DNA of 32,000 nt from Nitrososphaerota archaeon (GCA_021325595.1 JAJPGX010000001.1:47491-79490); one strand, 5' to 3'. Numbered from the stretch's first letter, positions 1,807-18,894 are shown. The notes: generated by a model from the letters alone, not told the origin. Numbers and translations: made by a program.

Positions 1807-2028
1807 TTATCTGGTTTTAATTGTGGTCCAGATGCCGACTCCACTCAAGGCAGCAGCAGTTCCCATTCCTACTATCCATCCTTCAATTTGGAGTGGGCCG
1901 TGAGGATTATTGGCGTCTGTATATGATACCTGTGCAAAAGCATGTGGAAATATGGCCACAATTGCAAGTAACACCAAAAGCCCAAGTATTGCGCTAGTTG
2001 GTTTTGTTTTAGAATCTAGTTTATTCAT
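1807..2028 (-). CDS. minimal secreted/anchored protein: signal peptide, 17-aa exposed segment and C-terminal anchor
   Basis: I prefer the ATG at 2028 (MNKLDSKTKPTSAILGLLVLLAIVAIFPHAFA/QV) over the ORF-track start at 2070. The C-terminal 25 aa EGWIVGMGTAAALSGVGIWTTIKTR match the cupredoxin C-terminus at 12 of 25 positions without gaps. Confidence 0.6.
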   Translation of the reverse strand: MNKLDSKTKPTSAILGLLVLLAIVAIFPHAFAQVSYTDANNPHGPLQIEGWIVGMGTAAALSGVGIWTTIKTR

Positions 2029-2171
2029 ATGTGATTTATGTATTTGACAAATAAAAAATTCGCTTAACATTGTTCAGTAACAATTTTTGATTTCTATTAT
2101 GTTTTGAACAGATAGTTTTGTATTGCAGTGTGTACTGAATTCTTTTATTTTATATTTGTAAAAAAGAAACC

Positions 2172-9014: not shown

Positions 9015-10247
9015 ATGAAATTACTTTTTTCAATTCTTGTCTTTCTTGCAACCATTTTAATCCTTCCTGCTTTTGGGGATGCTACCGTAAACGAGGATGA
9101 TTTTGTAGTAGAAAAATATGTGACCGGAATATGCTGCAGCCCAACTACCATCGGGTTTGTAGGAAAAGATATTCTTGTTTTGGAAAAAGCCACAGGACAT
9201 ATACAACTAATCCGTAATGGTATCTTGCAACAAGGTGTCTTGCAACAAACCCCTGTGCTTGAGGAAAACGTCACAAGTATAGGTGAACAAGGTATGCTCA
9301 GTATTGCAACAGATGGCAACAAGGTGTATCTATATTTTACAGAATCTTCAAAGAATAATGGGCCGCCTCTTGGAAAACGCATTTACAGTTATGATTGGAA
9401 TGGTGAAAAACTTGTTAACAAGACTCTAGTCAAAGATTTACCACAAACCCAAATTTACCATAATGGTGGAGGTATGACTTTTGATAAAAATGGATATCTG
9501 TATATCATTGTTGGAGATGCAGGTCATTATGGCAAACTGCAAAATCACGTGACAGGTGAGCCTGATGATACCGGTGTGATTTTACAGCTGGTTCCACCAG
9601 GACCATATTATGCCATCGGAATAAGAAATAGCTTTGGACTAACCATGGATCCTGTCACAGGAAAAATATGGGATACTGAAAACGGTCCAGATTTCGGTGA
9701 TGAGATAAACATGGTTCCTCCTAAATTTAACAGTGGGTGGGATGTAATAATGGGTCCTGCAAATAATACCCAGATACAAAACCTGCCAAAATTTGAAGAC
9801 TATGTGTACCATGATCCGCAGTTTACTTGGTGGAAACCTGTTGCACCAACAGGTCTTGCATTTGCAGACTCTGATAATTATGGAAAATACAAAAATGATC
9901 TTTTTGTAGGTGACTGTAACAATGGTAACCTGTATAGATTTACACTAAATCAGAATCGAGATGGTTTTGTATTTCAGTCTCCTCAACTACAAGACAAAGT
10001 AGTAAATCAAGGCGATTCCATGAATGAAATAACATTTGGTACTGGTTTTGGGTGTATTACAGATGTAAAGATGGGACCTGATGGTTGGCTGTATGTTGTA
10101 TCACTTTCTGATGGAACAATATATAGAATAGCTTCAAAAGAATTTGCACTTGCTCATTATATGCCATATGTTATAATACCAGGTCTTATTGCAGTCGGTA
10201 TATCATTCATAGTTTACTTTAGATTTAAGAAAAAACTAGTTCATTAG
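9015..10247 (+). CDS. PQQ-dependent sugar (glucose/sorbosone) dehydrogenase-like beta-propeller, C-terminally membrane anchored
   Basis: Family motifs: GMLSIA, YHNGGGMTFDKNGYLYIIVGD, GIRNSFGLTMDPVTGKIWDTENGPDFGDEINMV, GLAF, GPDGWLYV. Has a signal peptide and a C-terminal TM followed by FRFKKK. A TTATAA box at 8987-8992 is about 25 nt upstream of the ATG. Confidence 0.8.
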   Translation: MKLLFSILVFLATILILPAFGDATVNEDDFVVEKYVTGICCSPTTIGFVGKDILVLEKATGHIQLIRNGILQQGVLQQTPVLEENVTSIGEQGMLSIATDGNKVYLYFTESSKNNGPPLGKRIYSYDWNGEKLVNKTLVKDLPQTQIYHNGGGMTFDKNGYLYIIVGDAGHYGKLQNHVTGEPDDTGVILQLVPPGPYYAIGIRNSFGLTMDPVTGKIWDTENGPDFGDEINMVPPKFNSGWDVIMGPANNTQIQNLPKFEDYVYHDPQFTWWKPVAPTGLAFADSDNYGKYKNDLFVGDCNNGNLYRFTLNQNRDGFVFQSPQLQDKVVNQGDSMNEITFGTGFGCITDVKMGPDGWLYVVSLSDGTIYRIASKEFALAHYMPYVIIPGLIAVGISFIVYFRFKKKLVH

Positions 10248-11642: not shown

Positions 11643-11939
11643 ATGGTTCATGAATATAGGGATCGAATATACATGCGCAAGGATATTTTGCTCAAGTTGT
11701 ATGAACATGGGGAGCTAAACCAGAGTAAGCTTATGAGCTATTGCGGACTAAACAATGTAAAACATAAGGAAATACTAGACGAAATGGTGGAAAAAGGCAT
11801 ATTGAACAGGACTGAGTCTCCTTGGGGAAACAAAACAATTGTAAATTATAGTATATCGCCAAAAGGAAAAGACATACTAAAGGAAATTTTCGAACCATAT
11901 GAGGAATTATTTCCAAGGGGTGAAAAACAGAATGAGTAA
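11643..11939 (+). CDS. small winged-helix DNA-binding protein
   Basis: DILLKLYEHGELNQSKLMSYCGLNNVKHKEILDEMVEKGILNRTESPWGNKTIVNYSISPKG. An alternative ATG lies at 11673. Confidence 0.65.
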   Translation: MVHEYRDRIYMRKDILLKLYEHGELNQSKLMSYCGLNNVKHKEILDEMVEKGILNRTESPWGNKTIVNYSISPKGKDILKEIFEPYEELFPRGEKQNE

Positions 11940-11987
11940 CAAAGTTACCCAACTGTTTTTAGGTAAGGTAAAGGAGGAAACCTGATC

Positions 11988-12383
11988 ATGTCTGCAGATA
12001 AAGACAAAGATGAGCAACACGAAAATCTATTCAAAATAATGGATGGTGTAATCTCGCAGATAAACCGAACAAAAAAACTATTCATTATAATGATAATCAC
12101 TACTATGATTGTTTCTCCAATTGCACTGCTCATAAGCGCAGTATTGTTTACCCCGCCATTTGAGGACACAAATGAAACACCAAGCCAACATGATGGACGT
12201 ATCCACCACTTTTTCCCATTGCGGTTACTGCCTGCCATAGTCTCCGCTGTATGGTTAGGCATCGGAGTACGCCAATGGTTTGTACTTTCTAAATGGACAT
12301 CAAAATATGACAAGTATAAAAAAATGCAGAAAGAAATCGACAAAAAATTATCTGATGAAGATGAAAATGAATCAACGAAATAA
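11988..12383 (+). CDS. 2-TM membrane protein with acidic termini
   Basis: 131 aa. Two hydrophobic helices (LFIIMIITTMIVSPIALLISAVLF; LLPAIVSAVWLGIGV). The antisense ORF 11945-12343 was rejected. Confidence 0.55.
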   Translation: MSADKDKDEQHENLFKIMDGVISQINRTKKLFIIMIITTMIVSPIALLISAVLFTPPFEDTNETPSQHDGRIHHFFPLRLLPAIVSAVWLGIGVRQWFVLSKWTSKYDKYKKMQKEIDKKLSDEDENESTK

Positions 12384-12398
12384 CTTATCTGTAGACAT

Positions 12399-12420
12399 AA
12401 CCTTGTTACCTAACAAGGTT
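12399..12420. promoter_or_regulatory. perfect 22-bp palindrome (candidate operator or hairpin) abutting the TATA-like box of the ABC operon
   Basis: aaccttgtta-cc-taacaaggtt has 10-bp perfect arms. It is followed about 10 nt later by ttttattttaaa (12430-12441), then TTG 12452 and ATG 12470. Confidence 0.5.
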
Positions 12421-12469
12421 AGACAATCGTTTTATTTTAAACTCGATAACTTTGGATGTGTGGAACAAA

Positions 12470-13276
12470 ATGGATACTAGAGTAAGTAGAACAAGTGCTA
12501 GTGCTACAACATCTCATACTAGTCGTCTGCATTCAAATCGACCAGAAAATCTTACGATAGACCATTCCACACAATCTAGTAAACAAGAAAATGAAATTGC
12601 GCTTAAAACAGAAAATCTTTCCAAAGTCTTTGATTCTGCTGCAGGAAAAATAGTGGCACTAGACAATATTAATTTTGCAATCAAAAAAGGCGAGTTTGTA
12701 TCAATTGTTGGTCCATCTGGAAGCGGCAAATCTACTCTGTTAAACATGATTGGTGCACTTGATAGGCCAACATCTGGCAAAGTCTACATTGACGGTATAG
12801 ATATTTTTTCACTCAATGACTCACAACTTGGAATAATTCGAAACAACCGCATCGGATTCATATTTCAATCATTTAATCTCATTAACAGAACAACAGTTCA
12901 AAAAAATGTAAAACTTCCTGGAATAATTGCAAAGATGCAACGTGCTGATGCTGATTCTCGTACTATGAAGATTCTTGAGGCACTTGGTATTGCTGACAAA
13001 AAAGATCAAAAACCAGTGAATTTGAGTGGTGGTCAACAACAAAGAGTAGCAATAGCTCGTTCTTTGATAAATAATCCATCAATAATTTTAGCTGATGAAC
13101 CTACAGGAAACTTGGATACCAAAACAGGCGAAGATGTATTTGATATGCTCAAACTGTTATCACACAAATTCAAACGGACAATAATCATGGTTACACACAA
13201 TCCAGAACTTTCTGAATCTACAGACAGATCAATTGTGATACGAGATGGGAGAATAGATCAAGATGTCACTAACTAA
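12470..13276 (+). CDS. ABC transporter ATP-binding protein, MacB/LolD-type
   Basis: Walker A GPSGSGKST, Q-loop FIFQSF, signature LSGGQQQR, Walker B IILADEPT, H-loop VTHN. It carries a ~45-aa Ser/Thr/His-rich N-terminal extension. The ORF track opens at TTG 12452, but ATG 12470 fits the TATA spacing better. Confidence 0.9.
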   Translation: MDTRVSRTSASATTSHTSRLHSNRPENLTIDHSTQSSKQENEIALKTENLSKVFDSAAGKIVALDNINFAIKKGEFVSIVGPSGSGKSTLLNMIGALDRPTSGKVYIDGIDIFSLNDSQLGIIRNNRIGFIFQSFNLINRTTVQKNVKLPGIIAKMQRADADSRTMKILEALGIADKKDQKPVNLSGGQQQRVAIARSLINNPSIILADEPTGNLDTKTGEDVFDMLKLLSHKFKRTIIMVTHNPELSESTDRSIVIRDGRIDQDVTN

Positions 13277-15326
13277 TTTCACTAGTAATGTTGGTAAGAA
13301 ATTTGTTATGAAAGTAATAATTCCTATTCTGGCCATAATACTTGTATCATCTAATGTTGCACCGACTCTTACTGTATATGCTCTTAACCCAGGACAAACC
13401 ACTACTGTTTCACCATCTGATTGTTTTGCGCCGCTCACAACTCTTCTTGGCCCTACATATCAAGGACCTGTAGTATTGGATGCATACTGGGTGGATCAAG
13501 GAACATCAAGTACCAGTACTACCGATAACAATCCTGTGAAAAAAGAGGTGGGTCCAGGAGAAGGTCCCTCAGTATTAGCTGTGGTGTTCAATAACAGGGG
13601 AACAATTGCAATACAATCGTTTACAGGTTTTCTTAACCTCCCAAATGGATTTGAACCGACCGGTGCAAGTAATAACCCCCAACTACTCCAACAATACAAT
13701 CAGGCATCCAGAGTTGCAGTCAATCCTGCAGTTGGAAGCTATTATGGAACGGTAAATCCAGGAGACTCATTTACTGTATTTTTTGATATCAACGTATTAC
13801 CAACAGCCAAAGTGGGTAATTATCCTACGACTGTAGTAGGAAATTATTATCAACAAGGTGTAATCGGACAAATGTGTACCTCAGCACTACTTAATGTTCC
13901 ACTAGTTCTTCCGGGAAAAGTAGTTCTTGACGCATCATCTGATAAATCTGTAATAGAACCACAACAACAATCTTCTATCACCATTACAATCAAAAATAAG
14001 GGCTCTGCTCCTGCAACCGGCGTTGTTGCAACAATAACCAATCTGGGAAATACCAGAGGCGGGGGTTCCTCTAGCAATGGAGGAATTACCATATCGTCTT
14101 CAACCACACAAATTGTCAACTTGGGTGCAAACACATTCAACTTGGGTACAATCCCTGCTGGTGGAGAAACTCATATCAGTACGACAGTGTATCCTGGCAC
14201 TTCTGCAAGTGGAACTACACAAGAAGTTGACTTGACAGTTACATACCAAAATGCGTGGGGCAAATTGTCCAGTATTGGATTAGTTTCTGGTATTGTTGTA
14301 TCGCCAAATCCTCCGCAATCACTTAATTTATCATATCTTGGGAACTCTACATCTCCACTAATTACTGCAGGTAAATTAGATGATCTGGATTTTGCAGTAG
14401 AAAATAATAGCACAAACGAAATGTCAAATATTATAGTATCTCTTGTACCACAATCTACCTCTGTTTCCATAGTTGGTGCATCAACATGGACAATTGCAGT
14501 AATGCATCCCGGTGATAGACAAGTTCTTGCAACCAAAGTATTTGCAGCAAATTCATTAATCAACACACCAACTGCATTTACACTTACAGCAAATTATGTA
14601 TCAAAAGGACAAACCCAAACAAATTCCTTGACGCTGGGAACATTTGTAGTTGGCGATATCAAATTACAACTTTATAGTATAACAGTAAACAGTGCTGGTG
14701 GATCTTCAAGTCTTTCTGGCAACTTGCTTAATCAAGGAAGCACTACTGGATTATTTACTACCATTGATCTTGCACCTTCGCCACTCCTGACAGCTGTGCG
14801 TGAAGCTAGAATTACAAATATGACCAATAATCATAACGGCAGTCAATCAGTTCAATTTGCACAAGCACAAGAAGGAGGTGGACAAGGCTTTGGTGGACAA
14901 GGCTTTACTAGACAAGGTGGGCCGAGAGGAAATGTTCAAACCCAACAATTCATCGGTGATCTGACTCCTGATTCTCCAATTCCATTTAGCATACCAATTA
15001 GAGGAATCAATCTACTAAAGCCAGGCATGTATCCTGTTTCTTTTAAAGTAGTATATGCAGATGATCTAAAGAACTTCCATACTGTAATATTGAATGGAAC
15101 AGTAGCTGTGGCAAGTTCTGCTCCAACTCAGCTCCGACAAAATCAATCCATATTTGATCAAATGCCATTACCAGTAATATTTGGAGTAGGTGTAGCAATA
15201 GCAGCAGGAATTGCATTCATAATAAAGAAACGAAGATCAAAGAAAAAGCTAAAAATGTTAACACAAGGAAACACAGACATAGTTTCAATATTTGATGATG
15301 TGAACAAAAAAGAACATGAATCTTAA
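13263..15326 (+). CDS. large secreted surface protein with about four CARDB/COG1361-like Ig-fold modules and a C-terminal TM anchor
   Basis: Signal peptide (alternative ATG at 13308: MKVIIPILAIILVSS...). Repeated beta-sandwich pattern, e.g. SSITITIKNKGSAPATGVVATITNLG...LGTIPAGGETHISTTVYP...VDLTVTYQN. C-terminal TM followed by KKRRSKKK. Overlaps the ATPase stop by 14 nt and the permease start by 11 nt. Confidence 0.75.
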   Translation: MSLTNFTSNVGKKFVMKVIIPILAIILVSSNVAPTLTVYALNPGQTTTVSPSDCFAPLTTLLGPTYQGPVVLDAYWVDQGTSSTSTTDNNPVKKEVGPGEGPSVLAVVFNNRGTIAIQSFTGFLNLPNGFEPTGASNNPQLLQQYNQASRVAVNPAVGSYYGTVNPGDSFTVFFDINVLPTAKVGNYPTTVVGNYYQQGVIGQMCTSALLNVPLVLPGKVVLDASSDKSVIEPQQQSSITITIKNKGSAPATGVVATITNLGNTRGGGSSSNGGITISSSTTQIVNLGANTFNLGTIPAGGETHISTTVYPGTSASGTTQEVDLTVTYQNAWGKLSSIGLVSGIVVSPNPPQSLNLSYLGNSTSPLITAGKLDDLDFAVENNSTNEMSNIIVSLVPQSTSVSIVGASTWTIAVMHPGDRQVLATKVFAANSLINTPTAFTLTANYVSKGQTQTNSLTLGTFVVGDIKLQLYSITVNSAGGSSSLSGNLLNQGSTTGLFTTIDLAPSPLLTAVREARITNMTNNHNGSQSVQFAQAQEGGGQGFGGQGFTRQGGPRGNVQTQQFIGDLTPDSPIPFSIPIRGINLLKPGMYPVSFKVVYADDLKNFHTVILNGTVAVASSAPTQLRQNQSIFDQMPLPVIFGVGVAIAAGIAFIIKKRRSKKKLKMLTQGNTDIVSIFDDVNKKEHES

Positions 15327-16554
15327 TGATCTTTTTTCATTATCTTTTGAAGCTCTAGCTGATAGAAAAATAAGGACACTACTTACTATTTTGATGGTCG
15401 TACTTGGGTGTAGTCTTGTTGTAGTATTAAATGGATTAAGTGCAGGTCAAGCAGCTTTTTTGGAAAAGCAATTCAGTACATTAGCAGCTAATGTTATCTT
15501 TGTAAATAATGGACAGCGCTCATTCAGAGGTGAGGCTCCACCAACATCTATAATCATAAACGATGTAATTCTAAGTAAGATCCGCTCTCTTTCATATGTG
15601 GAAGACGCCATACCAGAATATACCGGCTCTGTACAAATAGACGCTAATGGAAATACCCAAAGAGCTTCAATCACTGCAATGGATCCTAACAAACTAACTG
15701 TGTTATTACCAAATGTCGATTATGTTGACGGTTCTTCGGTAAAACCCTCTGATGCTTCTGCTGCACTAGTTGGTGATACAGTGGCAAACCCGCCAGGAGC
15801 TGATATTTCCTTTATCACACTGGGACAAACAATCAAAGCTACATTTAGCTATAGTGATTCTGCTGGAAAGCAAGTACAAGTTACAAGAAATTTTGTGGTC
15901 TCTGGAATTCTCAAACCTTCTGGAAATAGTATGGTAGATAGGTCTATTATCATAAATCGTGATGCTGGAAATCAGTTACTGCACAAACAAAACAAATATG
16001 ATCAGATTATAGTTGCTGCAACAACACCTGACTATGTTGATACAGTACAACAAGAAATATCAGATCAATTTGGCAAGACTCTAGGCATAACAAGCCCTAC
16101 GGCAATCATGGCAGTACGAACTCAAACAGCAAGTGGAAATGCCGCCTTTATTCTGATGGTTGGAATCATTGCGCTTGTGGTAGGTGCAGTTGGTATAGTT
16201 ACAACCCTCTACAATTCAGTAACAGAAAGAATCAAAGAAATAGGTACTATGAAGGCAATAGGAGCTCAGAATTCGACAATTCTTGCATTGTTTTTGGTAG
16301 AAGCAAGTCTGATTGGCCTGATTGGGGCTTCTCTTGGGGTAATTATTGGAGTAGTTGGCGGTTATGCACTAAGTATAGCTACAACTACTAGTGTTGCTGG
16401 GGGAGGTCCACCTACTCATATACCACCAGTCTTTGATCTAATGGATCTTGTAAAAGTGTGGTCACTTTCCTTGGTACTAAGTATAATTGCAGGGATTTAT
16501 CCTGCATGGAAAGCATCTAGGCTGTCTCCAATGGTGGCCTTGAGAAGAGACTGA
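15316..16554 (+). CDS. ABC transporter permease, FtsX/MacB family, with large extracytoplasmic domain
   Basis: N-terminus LADRKIRTLLTILMVVLGCSLVV. About 230 aa of external domain, then RIKEIGTMKAIGAQNSTILALFLVEASLIGLIGASLGVIIG and two more TM helices. Confidence 0.9.
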   Translation: MNLNDLFSLSFEALADRKIRTLLTILMVVLGCSLVVVLNGLSAGQAAFLEKQFSTLAANVIFVNNGQRSFRGEAPPTSIIINDVILSKIRSLSYVEDAIPEYTGSVQIDANGNTQRASITAMDPNKLTVLLPNVDYVDGSSVKPSDASAALVGDTVANPPGADISFITLGQTIKATFSYSDSAGKQVQVTRNFVVSGILKPSGNSMVDRSIIINRDAGNQLLHKQNKYDQIIVAATTPDYVDTVQQEISDQFGKTLGITSPTAIMAVRTQTASGNAAFILMVGIIALVVGAVGIVTTLYNSVTERIKEIGTMKAIGAQNSTILALFLVEASLIGLIGASLGVIIGVVGGYALSIATTTSVAGGGPPTHIPPVFDLMDLVKVWSLSLVLSIIAGIYPAWKASRLSPMVALRRD

Positions 16555-17593: not shown

Positions 17594-18511
17594 CTAAATT
17601 TTTAGTATTCCGTTGTTTATTAAATACTCTATGCCTTTTGCAAACTCTTCATCAGTAATGGTTCCATCTGCCCACCACTTTGCATTATTTTTTATCCATG
17701 TTGGAATGTCCTTGGATTCTGGTGGTCCCACTTGACTATGTGGTACTATGACTATTCCAGTATCTATCATGTATTGTATGCCTTTGATAAAATCAGTATC
17801 AGTAATGGTTCCATCTGCCCACCACTTTGCATTATTTTTTATCCATGCTGGAATATTTGTATGTATACCTGTATTATTCGGGCCCACATAGAACGTATCA
17901 ATGGAATTTCCAAACAACACTAAATCTTGATCAAAACGCTCTGAATTACTTGTAAGAACTAGCGTATACTGATCTCCAGTATTGAGATAGTATATCATGT
18001 CTGCGCTATATGATGTTGAGTTATCTGAAGAATAAGTGGTTGATGAGAAGGTAAGCATTCTTACTCCATCTGAATATCTCTCAATTCCTGCCTTTGAAAT
18101 ATTAGTTTGTGACTCTTGAGACTTTGATGTCATTTCGCTTGTAAGCTCATCTAATACCTCCTTGTCAGTATGACTGTTTATTGCTTCAAGCACTTGATTT
18201 GAAATAGTTCTGTGAAATACGACAAATGTGGCAAGCTGACCTTTACTGTTATCTGAAAACATGGCAATTGCGCTACCGGATACATCTGTGGGAATATTTT
18301 TTAATAATTTCCAATTTGGCGGAGGTTGAATAGAAAAATGGTATTCGGAATTTTTATACGAATTTGAATCTGCAACCTTTATGGAATTTGCAAATATGGA
18401 TGTTGAATAATTAGTTGCGTATGCATAACTAAAACTCAACATTAAAATCAAAAATGAACAAAAAATTCTCTTTCCTGTAATATTATCTCTGATTATTCTT
18501 TGTAGGTTCAT
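17594..18511 (-). CDS. secreted protein with two C-terminal WIKNNAKWWADGTITD repeat modules
   Basis: I prefer ATG 18511 (MNLQRIIRDNITGKRIFCSFLILMLSFSYAYA/TN), which removes the overlap with the upstream gene. The C-terminus contains IPAWIKNNAKWWADGTITDTDFIKGIQYMIDTGIVIVP and IPTWIKNNAKWWADGTITDEEFAKGIEYLINNGILKI. There is no TM anchor. Confidence 0.75.
   Translation of the reverse strand: MNLQRIIRDNITGKRIFCSFLILMLSFSYAYATNYSTSIFANSIKVADSNSYKNSEYHFSIQPPPNWKLLKNIPTDVSGSAIAMFSDNSKGQLATFVVFHRTISNQVLEAINSHTDKEVLDELTSEMTSKSQESQTNISKAGIERYSDGVRMLTFSSTTYSSDNSTSYSADMIYYLNTGDQYTLVLTSNSERFDQDLVLFGNSIDTFYVGPNNTGIHTNIPAWIKNNAKWWADGTITDTDFIKGIQYMIDTGIVIVPHSQVGPPESKDIPTWIKNNAKWWADGTITDEEFAKGIEYLINNGILKI
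17651..17847. repeat. 50-nt perfect direct repeat with 147-nt period inside the gene above
   Basis: atcagtaatggttccatctgcccaccactttgcattattttttatccatg occurs at 17651-17700 and again at 17798-17847 with no mismatch. Confidence 0.95.
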
Positions 18512-18519
18512 GTGTGTGT

Positions 18520-18894
18520 TTAGATGAATCTTTTCACAATTGGTAAACAATTGTCTATTATTCTAAGTACCTCAGAACGAATAACATTCTTGTCGATTGA
18601 TAGCCAAACTGTGTTTTTATTAATTGTAAATGATATCGTCTGTACTTTCTCTCTTTCCTCCCACATGAACTGTACCTTTCCCAACTGCCTATCAAACTTG
18701 GCTGACATGCCAGTTTTTACTGCAAGATGAGAAAACTGATTTTGAGTGCTTTTTGTATTTAATAGTCCTTTATGCCCTATTCTTCTTTCATATGCGATTA
18801 CTTTGCCTTTACTATTGATCACGGCAACAAATCTTACATAGTTACTCATCTTACGAATTGATTTTACTATCTCATGGGCATCTTTTCTATTCAA
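18520..18894 (-). CDS. Roadblock/LC7 (MglB-like)-type small protein, paralog C
   Basis: 124 aa. VRFVAVINSKGKVIAYERR ... LGKVQFMWEEREKVQTISFTINKNTVWLSIDKNVIRSEVLRIIDNCL. Its stop is 8 nt upstream of the secreted-protein start at 18511. Confidence 0.6.
   Translation of the reverse strand: MNRKDAHEIVKSIRKMSNYVRFVAVINSKGKVIAYERRIGHKGLLNTKSTQNQFSHLAVKTGMSAKFDRQLGKVQFMWEEREKVQTISFTINKNTVWLSIDKNVIRSEVLRIIDNCLPIVKRFI

Follow-up and report, generated by a model that had tools for sequence, protein, structure and literature searches.

We analyzed a 32,000-nt stretch of DNA from a Nitrososphaerota archaeon (GCA_021325595.1 JAJPGX010000001.1:47491-79490), referred to below as the window and numbered from its first nucleotide. 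Five same-strand genes at 11643-16554 encode a winged helix-turn-helix (wHTH) protein, a protein with two transmembrane (TM) segments (the 2-TM protein), an ATP-binding cassette (ABC) ATPase, a 687-aa protein with immunoglobulin-like (Ig) domains, and a permease (Table 1). The last three genes, here called the trio, are the main subject of this work. A preliminary description of this DNA had reported a palindrome and a TATA element followed by three genes with overlapping stop and start codons, and we recovered all of these features where it had placed them. The ATPase and Ig genes share 14 nt (GATGTCACTAACTAA, 13263-13276), and the Ig and permease genes share 11 nt (ATGAATCTTAA, 15316-15326), both read directly from the sequence. 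Overlaps, or gaps of less than ~50 nt, also occurred between the trio genes in every relative that we looked up, supporting the view that the three genes are likely a translationally coupled unit.

Table 1. Positions of genes, regulatory elements, and protein segments at the trio locus
Feature	Position	Strand	Basis or remark
wHTH regulator, 98 aa	11643..11939	+	Pfam HTH_45 5.8e-6, MarR 1.4e-5; candidate operon regulator
2-TM membrane protein, 131 aa	11988..12383	+	Hydrophobic segments 28-59, 75-94
Perfect palindrome AACCTTGTT-N4-AACAAGGTT (= AACCTTGTTAcCTAACAAGGTT)	12399..12420		Operator-like, abuts promoter
A/T box TTTTATTTTAAA, putative archaeal TATA element	12430..12441	+	Read from sequence
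ABC ATPase, 268 aa from ATG, LolD/MacB/FtsE clade	12470..13276	+	Pfam/NCBIfam/structure matches
687-aa type-I membrane protein (Ig protein)	13263..15326	+	Hydropathy, AlphaFold2
Family signature QFIGDLTPDSPIPFSIP in D4, residues 562-578	14946..14996	+	Consensus QYLGDLxx[DN]SPLPFSIP
Cytoplasmic tail of Ig protein, residues 657-687	15231-15323	+	Conserved among close relatives
MacB-type permease, 412 aa	15316..16554	+	Pfam MacB_PCD + FtsX, hydropathy

The window has a low G+C content (~36%). Its 687-aa protein is 100% identical to one on a contig of assembly GCA_037024435.1, and the relatives of this protein are named Nitrosotalea, making the window Nitrosotalea-like. Members of Nitrosotalea are acidophilic ammonia-oxidizing Nitrososphaeria.

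The ATPase and permease resemble MacB-type motors

The open reading frame (ORF) of the ATPase opens at a TTG codon at 12452 (12452-13276). Translation probably starts at the ATG at 12470, which we favor because the public gene call on the identical contig and the layout of the upstream signals agree on it. The protein begins with a 45-aa low-complexity extension and contains all expected motifs, including a Walker A motif (GPSGSGKST), a signature motif (LSGGQQQR), a Walker B motif (IILADEPT), and an H-loop (VTHN). It matched Pfam ABC_tran at 7e-37, and its best NCBIfam matches were LolD (9e-71), MacB (5e-65), and FtsE (3e-60), with DarD also among them. All of these fell below the equivalog cut-offs, as with the 238 bits scored against a cut-off of 308 for LolD. 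The closest solved structure was that of MJ0796 of Methanocaldococcus jannaschii (1.8e-62), followed by Streptococcus pneumoniae Spr0694 (5xu1_A, 7.5e-61) and then by MacB and LolD; the YbbA structure matched at 1.5e-45. With its catalytic motifs intact, the protein is a cognate ATPase from the LolD/MacB/FtsE clade, in agreement with its earlier designation as MacB/LolD-type.

The permease matched Pfam MacB_PCD over residues 21-250 (2e-17, 64.5 bits, cut-off 27) and Pfam FtsX over residues 281-405 (3e-18, 66.4 bits, cut-off 25.5). Hydropathy analysis indicated four hydrophobic segments, with an external domain of ~223 aa between TM1 and TM2 (residues 47-269, nt 15454-16122), close to the ~230 aa that had been proposed for an FtsX/MacB permease. 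Four TM segments, a large TM1-TM2 ectodomain, a MacB_PCD domain, and a C-terminal FtsX domain constitute the architecture of a type VII ABC permease. As a single sequence, the permease had YtrF as its best solved relative, and a single-sequence AlphaFold2 model reached a predicted local distance difference test (pLDDT) score of 40. A profile built from 16 trio-linked permeases was also compared with solved structures. This profile matched Escherichia coli MacB at 6e-71 across the whole permease part including the extracytoplasmic domain (residues 255-648), S. pneumoniae Spr0695 at 2e-57, YtrF at 5e-53, and LolF, LolC, and LolE at 1e-40 to 1e-27. FtsX was matched at about 1e-7 and in the TM part only. 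Against NCBIfam, the permease scored 98 bits (6e-28) with lolCE, for which the cut-off is 362, and 20-40 bits with the FtsX models, for which the cut-offs are 225-255. On these profile comparisons, the permease classifies as MacB proper and not as an FtsX or Lol orthologue.

ABC proteins of the MacB fold turn ATP binding and hydrolysis into motion of their ectodomain, which drives a partner such as MacA-TolC, LolA, EnvC/PcsB, or TesA, and they do not move a substrate across the membrane (PMC5985334, PMC12646458, PMC7668044). By family membership, the ectodomain of the trio permease would likewise transmit mechanical force, with no transmembrane path for a substrate. MacB, Spr0695, and YknZ all pair with a single-pass membrane-anchored adaptor (PMC5985334).

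The 687-aa protein is predicted to be an anchored stack of Ig-like domains

Hydropathy analysis of the Ig protein revealed an N-terminal signal-like segment (residues 9-38; signal peptide assigned to residues 1-40) and a single C-terminal TM segment (residues 633-656), after which a basic cluster (KKRRSKKK) and a 30-aa tail follow. An AlphaFold2 model built from a 91-sequence alignment (maa0b2114e0a0, mean pLDDT 73) contained four beta-sandwiches, D1 (residues 57-216), D2 (222-346), D3 (354-463), and D4 (468-616), leading into the TM helix. A disordered G/Q-rich insert (residues 523-559) lies within D4. The preliminary description had proposed about four CARDB/COG1361-like modules. The number of modules agreed with the model, and relatives of the protein exceeded the Pfam CARDB cut-off of 22.7 bits (P0204, 45.4; P0313, 44.7; P0306, 58.5), but the window protein itself reached the cut-off of no Pfam or NCBIfam model, the nearest being NPCBM_assoc (18.4 versus 24.4). 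We therefore assign the window protein to the CARDB/COG1361 type from its relatives and the AlphaFold2 model, which together indicate tandem CARDB-type beta-sandwiches in a secreted protein and support a predicted C-terminally anchored stack of approximately four such domains. A sequence search against solved structures returned no match for the Ig protein, and a Foldseek search of the model against the PDB returned generic tandem beta-sandwiches only (hydin, integrin alpha legs, and alpha-2-macroglobulin). We considered two other modes of anchoring and rejected both. An archaeosortase/exosortase signal (PGF-/PEF-CTERM) had no NCBIfam match at E <= 0.01, and the 30-aa tail follows the basic cluster; for a lipoprotein anchor, no lipobox was detected and a true TM helix is present.

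The family has conserved features of its own. The signature QYLGDLxx[DN]SPLPFSIP occurred once in 68 of 75 complete family proteins, all encoded at loci retrieved after the window itself, and was found across cluster representatives. D4, the membrane-proximal domain, was the most conserved in a diverse set (37-44% identity versus 27-30% for D1-D3), and family-conserved motifs were also present in the membrane-distal D1. The cytoplasmic tail, with the consensus KKLKMLTQGDTDIVSIFDD..KKENES, was 80-90% conserved in 59 Nitrosotalea-clade relatives, above the level of the TM helix, and was absent from Caldarchaeales and other distant members. This tail may contact the ATPase or another cytoplasmic factor. 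Conservation of D4 and the tail fits a resident subunit rather than a shed product. Family members varied in length by whole domains, from ~400 aa in DPANN-type archaea through 540-740 aa in most members to 1100-1600 aa. The longest forms (P0121, P0124, P0126, P0130, and P0133) are tandem duplications of the four-domain unit with one C-terminal TM segment. Several relatives are labeled "COG1361 S-layer family protein" by NCBI. This name is inherited from a COG label, and the operon linkage to an ABC system together with the conserved cytoplasmic tail argues for an accessory role rather than a place in the lattice.

The three genes behave as one inherited unit

We looked up the contigs of 12 homologues of the Ig protein (19-89% identity), with sources including Nitrososphaeria, Caldarchaeales, DPANN-type archaea, and the planctomycete Stieleria varia. 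A MacB permease gene adjoined the Ig gene in 12 of 12 and an ATPase gene in 11 of 12. The order ATPase-Ig-permease was present in Nitrosotalea devaniterrae (locus L002), in the Caldarchaeales/Aigarchaeota clade (L003), in L004, and in a locus for a 1507-aa form (L012, P0121), where the flanking ABC genes are fragments with 11-nt overlaps. One locus carried Ig-permease without an adjacent ATPase (L005), another permease-ATPase-Ig (L013), and a third a PadR gene followed by Ig-ATPase-permease (L015). Diapherotrites-type loci (L009-L011) encode an ATPase, a short family member (405-425 aa), and two MacB permeases that form a LolC/LolE-like pair; in two of them (L009 and L010) the ATPase gene is immediately preceded by that of a small AbrB/MazE-like protein. 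The S. varia locus (L014, SJPN01000002.1) has ATPase-Ig-permease with 4-nt overlaps. Genes for a 3017-aa polyketide synthase and a methyltransferase lie ~2.1 kb upstream, separated from it by a single gene on the opposite strand. This bacterial trio could have been acquired horizontally, or it could serve the polyketide cluster in export or self-resistance.

A degenerate DNA pattern encoding the D4 signature was also run against metagenome contigs, a selection blind to ABC genes. The scan returned 120 loci, and 92 clusters contained a family member by hidden Markov model. A permease was adjacent in 69 of these clusters, an ATPase in 58, and both in 53; in 37 of the 39 clusters without both partners, the contig or locus ended within 0.9-1.3 kb. 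Only two informative exceptions to linkage were found. One is L102, without an ATPase, and the other is a solo second copy on L068 (9339-10520, ~393 aa), which has no ABC genes beside it and shares its contig with a complete trio. ATPase-Ig-permease was the commonest order (41 complete clusters, with 21 partial clusters consistent), and the trio stayed together in the permuted orders permease-ATPase-Ig, Ig-permease-ATPase, and Ig-ATPase-permease. A profile search with distant members (A3) returned mostly the Caldarchaeales clade, and a genome scan with the single protein returned three Nitrosotalea loci only. The preliminary description had named synteny of the Ig orthologues with ABC genes beforehand as the point on which its proposal would turn, and synteny held in both collections, with very few exceptions and between very distant lineages.

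In 46 complete trios, distance-matrix correlations were 0.91 for ATPase-permease, 0.83 for ATPase-Ig, and 0.81 for Ig-permease, and the partial correlation of Ig and permease given the ATPase was 0.26 (permutation p = 0.001). By gene order and sequence divergence, the ATPase, Ig, and permease genes behave as one inherited unit.

Two parts of the earlier proposal fared less well. It had attributed the place of the Ig protein to an S-layer-only archaeon lacking a membrane-fusion protein (MFP) and TolC, an explanation weakened by the trio of the diderm bacterium S. varia and by monoderm bacteria that use MFP adaptors without TolC or an outer membrane (PMC5985334). Its 1:1:1 stoichiometry had been drawn from the gene overlaps only, which do not imply it, and the DPANN-type loci, having two permease genes per Ig gene, contradict it on the level of genes. 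No HlyD/MFP or OEP domain was found in the genes flanking the window trio or in the called genes around the 12 related trios, so that the HlyD-family adaptor and TolC-like duct of a MacAB-TolC-type tripartite pump are absent from these neighborhoods.

A palindrome-promoter unit and candidate regulators accompany the trio

The palindrome upstream of the ATPase gene is unique in the window as a perfect copy, and 100 shuffles produced no match to it. Next come GACAATCG and, 9 nt after the palindrome, the A/T box; the ATG at 12470 lies 29 nt beyond the box. Arms of this class (class 1) together with an xGAyAAtcgTTTTATT block also precede the ATPase gene in L017 and L087, with degenerate copies in L002, L006, and L007. 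In four other loci (L004, L066, L088, and L098), a class-2 palindrome, AACTGACTG-AC-CAGTCAGTT, is located by an A/T box, again at about -55 from the ORF start, the position at which the palindrome is fixed. Operator and promoter keep their arrangement, although the sequence of the operator differs. Among 64 upstream regions, 12 contained a perfect inverted repeat with arms of at least 8 nt, versus 4.5% of random windows. These comparisons support the palindrome and TATA-like box as a putative conserved regulatory element, and the box would function as the promoter.

The wHTH protein scored just above the Pfam cut-offs for both HTH_45 and MarR, and the 2-TM protein had no Pfam match. Homologues of the wHTH protein (1e-39 to 1e-48) were next to or near the trio in L017, L087, L045, L131, L002, L007, L088, and L096, and a 2-TM homologue followed the wHTH homologue in eight other loci. 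Counting the window and its own contig (L001) as one locus, the pair was adjacent to the trio in five distinct loci and 1.7-9 kb away in four. Its arrangement varied, being tandem in the window, divergent in L017 and L087, where the 147-nt spacer includes the palindrome, convergent in L045 and L131, also adjacent to the trio, and 1.7-9 kb off in L002, L007, L088, and L096. The wHTH protein, previously described as dedicated, and the 2-TM protein are therefore recurrent neighbors of the trio but not fixed ones. Wherever the wHTH gene lay within 2 kb and the promoter region was visible (five loci, all closely related), a class-1 palindrome was present. The wHTH protein is a plausible regulator of the operon, though not a strictly dedicated one, and the 2-TM protein could be a membrane sensor or co-regulator. 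With the conserved palindrome/TATA unit and the wHTH/2-TM pair nearby, the operon looks regulated. Small regulators lay beside the trio in several lineages, including wHTH, PadR (L015), and AbrB/MazE-like proteins (L009 and L010). A possible tie of the wHTH/2-TM pair to a second ABC ATPase (L002, 3679-4455; L007, 1820-2605) was rejected, as this ATPase is SufC-like (Fe-S cluster assembly), of a housekeeping type, and unrelated to the trio.

Related palindromes were detected elsewhere. Near-copies of AACnnTGTT-N4-AACAnnGTT with one mismatch each are present at 328-349 and 2066-2087 of the window (chance expectation, 0.05), each followed by an A/T box after about 8-10 nt. The first lies upstream of a cupredoxin/plastocyanin-like secreted protein (462-1256) with a long Ser/Thr-rich linker, in which TSTPSTT occurs ~5 times, and a C-terminal TM segment. 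The second is flanked by an 87-aa secreted/TM ORF (1807-2070, minus strand) and by the gene for an 88-aa HTH protein (2172-2438). In L002 (6146-6167), L006 (161-182), and L007 (4289-4310), a class-1 palindrome with its TATA block is also found before a DUF6659 gene that lies upstream of the trio by a few genes; no class-1 palindrome site was found in front of the DUF6659 gene of the window (18520-18894, minus strand). These copies suggest a small regulon or a family of paralogous regulators.

Other features of the window

A PsbP-like secreted protein of 318 aa is encoded at 17594-18550 (minus strand), and its C-terminal end consists of two tandem 30-aa units (IPxWIKNNAKWWADGTITDxxFxKGIxYxI). 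Both the window (9015-10247) and the distant locus L015 (9969-11237) have a gene for a glucose/sorbosone dehydrogenase (GSDH) no more than ~3 kb from the trio, possibly by coincidence. Rfam and tRNA scans of the window returned no match, and PADLOC returned generic ABC matches only and no defense system. A scan for promoters and terminators of the bacterial type, models that do not apply to archaea, was not above chance, and oligo-T counts indicated no clear terminator.

A possible envelope-protection machine and its alternatives

The genes with their domains and folds, near-obligate linkage, co-inheritance, and conserved operator-plus-promoter unit are what the analysis shows and form the basis of the model that we propose, in which docking, stoichiometry, substrate, and direction of action are what we infer. 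The trio would be a type VII ABC mechanotransducer in which an Ig stalk replaces the membrane-fusion adaptor and which serves inducible protection of the envelope. We give this model close to an even chance of being correct, if slightly short of it. A dimer of the ATPase and a dimer of the permease would form a MacB-fold motor, with the Ig stalk as its dedicated extracytoplasmic partner in the slot that MacA, YknX, and Spr0693 occupy in bacterial MacB pumps. A stable complex with the stalk is suggested because the MFP partner is absent and its place in the operon is taken and kept by the Ig protein. The stalk would dock on the permease via its C-terminal TM helix and the membrane-proximal D4, such that D4 would lie at the height of the permease ectodomain and D1-D3 would project into the pseudo-periplasm. 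ATP binding and hydrolysis would close and open the permease ectodomain, as in MacB, and this motion would drive material outward from the membrane surface, along the stalk or through it, instead of moving it across the membrane. The expelled material would most likely be membrane-active or amphiphilic compounds or peptides, as the comparison with MacB, YknXYZ, and BceAB suggests. A regulator binding the palindrome beside the TATA box, probably the wHTH protein with its 2-TM companion, would switch expression, and the outcome would be an inducible envelope-protection device. An operator-controlled promoter and small regulators in several lineages fit such a device.

Several points weigh against this model. 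The contact between stalk and permease is one that we infer indirectly, and the substrate is a guess by analogy. The stalk gave no sign of oligomerizing into an MFP-like duct, and the Foldseek search found no channel-forming or adaptor-like analogue of it. The partial correlation between the Ig and permease distance matrices is modest, and the correlations are mostly explained by shared phylogeny. The pairing of regulator and operator appears from co-occurrence in a few closely related loci. Furthermore, the family is retained in small DPANN-type genomes and is nearly universal in the clade, which would suit a housekeeping role in the envelope as well as it suits a stress pump.

The same tripartite complex may instead work in the manner of FtsEX, transmitting a signal or force through a rigid stalk to the S-layer or pseudo-periplasm for lattice insertion, remodeling, or division-linked opening; remodeling of the envelope was among the examples given in the preliminary description. 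Pure transmitters are known among type VII systems, FtsEX-EnvC being one (PMC7668044, PMC12646458). The persistence of the family in reduced DPANN-type genomes and the conserved motifs in the membrane-distal D1 would suit a transmitter, as would a stalk length that ranges from ~400 to ~1600 aa by gain of whole domains, as expected for spanning an envelope gap. We nevertheless consider this alternative unlikely. The permease profile is near MacB (6e-71) and far from FtsX (1e-7), the stalk has no catalytic or activator domain by Pfam or Foldseek, the trio also occurs in a planctomycete, whose envelope is not that of an S-layer-only archaeon, and an operator-controlled promoter suggests conditional rather than cell cycle use.

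A second alternative regards the Ig protein as the client of a Lol-like extractor that releases, positions, or quality-controls an anchored protein after Sec export. Cargo genes are often found beside dedicated ABC exporters, as at type I secretion and bacteriocin loci. LolD was the best NCBIfam match of the ATPase, the two permease genes of DPANN-type loci recall LolC/LolE, and the Ig protein is the fastest evolving of the three (mean p-distance, 0.74 versus 0.65 and 0.49). However, the Lol equivalog cut-offs were missed widely (98 versus 362 bits), and the Ig protein has a true TM helix with a strongly conserved 30-aa cytoplasmic tail and no detected lipobox or sortase-type signal (0 NCBIfam matches). 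One transporter for a single cargo gene, kept across phyla and translationally coupled to it, would also be unusual, and we judge a client role to be improbable. Lastly, although relatives are named "S-layer family protein" by NCBI, CARDB domains are common in unrelated surface proteins, and the second family member on L068 stands alone, it is very improbable that the Ig protein is an adhesin or S-layer-associated protein merely co-transcribed with an ordinary MacB-type efflux pump, because linkage is near-obligate in ~100 loci from several phyla even where the gene order differs, the three proteins are co-inherited, and the family has a signature and a conserved membrane-proximal domain of its own.

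Returning to the envelope-protection model, we extend it to the family as a whole with some doubt. The Ig stalk may represent an unrecognized, mainly archaeal, non-MFP class of type VII partner, a "periscope" whose length is set by domain number (~400 to ~1600 aa) and through which a MacB-type motor would use ATP to power work in the pseudo-periplasm or at the S-layer. If this holds, the stalk would be among the very few known ways for archaea to deliver cytoplasmic energy to the outer envelope, and the MJ0796 ATPase would belong to such a machine. Should the complex itself prove true, it would offer a concrete, testable route by which archaea expend ATP outside the membrane and would give a function to the widespread "COG1361 S-layer family" annotation. 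The operator-promoter unit and the wHTH/2-TM pair also provide a handle on the inducing signal in ammonia-oxidizing archaea.

Comparison with known systems

The association of these genes is not itself new because the gene neighborhood is implicit in COG-level annotation. What is new here is how strictly the genes are linked, together with the family signature, the conservation of the membrane-proximal domain and of the cytoplasmic tail, the occurrence in a bacterium, and the operator-promoter unit. A search of the open-access literature found no functional or structural work on the trio; COG1361 came up only in passing, as a putative S-layer domain, and the characterized type VII ABC systems found there were all bacterial. 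Such systems are defined by the partner that they move, MacA-TolC, LolA, EnvC/PcsB, and recently TesA. With an Ig-type partner linked to MacB-type genes across Nitrososphaeria, Caldarchaeales, DPANN-type archaea, and a planctomycete clade, we regard the trio as a type VII ABC system with a new class of partner.

The trio is most like MacAB(-TolC), YknXYZ of Bacillus, and Spr0693-0694-0695, which are also operons with a single-pass anchored, elongated extracytoplasmic partner and whose ATPases and permeases were matched by those of the trio (the Spr0694 and MacB nucleotide-binding domains [NBDs], and MacB and Spr0695, respectively). Their adaptor is an HlyD-family protein with an alpha-hairpin, lipoyl, and beta-barrel domains and an N-terminal TM segment, whereas the trio partner is predicted to be a CARDB-like stack with a C-terminal TM segment. 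Unlike MacAB-TolC, the trio has no TolC.

FtsEX with EnvC, PcsB, CwlO, or RipC shares the type VII fold and has a mechanical output on an extracytoplasmic partner instead of transport (PMC7668044, PMC12646458). The trio permease is weakly related to FtsX, in the TM part only, which places it outside the FtsEX group; the trio partner has no coiled coil or hydrolase-activating domain, and the trio host has no peptidoglycan. YbbAP-TesA of E. coli had its type VII partner recognized by co-location and co-evolution and is a proposed extractor of hydrophobic molecules from the membrane surface (PMC12646458). Its partner is a soluble hydrolase, whereas that of the trio would be a non-catalytic, membrane-anchored Ig stack. 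LolCDE-LolA is alike in that LolD is the best model for the ATPase, that the permease matches lolCE and LolF/LolC/LolE, and that some loci have two permease genes. It differs in that all Lol equivalog cut-offs were missed, no LolA-like gene is nearby, and the Ig protein has no lipobox, so that the trio falls outside the Lol group as well.

SlaB, the S-layer stalk of Sulfolobales, has a signal peptide, beta-sandwiches, and a C-terminal TM anchor and spans the pseudo-periplasm. The Ig stalk is predicted to share these features with SlaB, which differs in its coiled coil, in its pairing with SlaA, and in having no ABC linkage; SlaB was absent from the top 50 Foldseek matches of the Ig model.

An archaeal parallel may lie beside MJ0796, the nearest solved relative of the ATPase, which is presumably flanked by a COG1361 protein and a MacB-type permease (MJ0795 and MJ0797). 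MJ0796 is regarded as a LolD/MacB-family NBD (PMC8277102). Only the isolated MJ0796 ATPase had been studied in the open-access literature that we searched, in which no work on a complex or on MJ0795 was found. If the trio does form the proposed complex, it would supply a physiological context for MJ0796, whose structure was among the founding structures of ABC ATPases.

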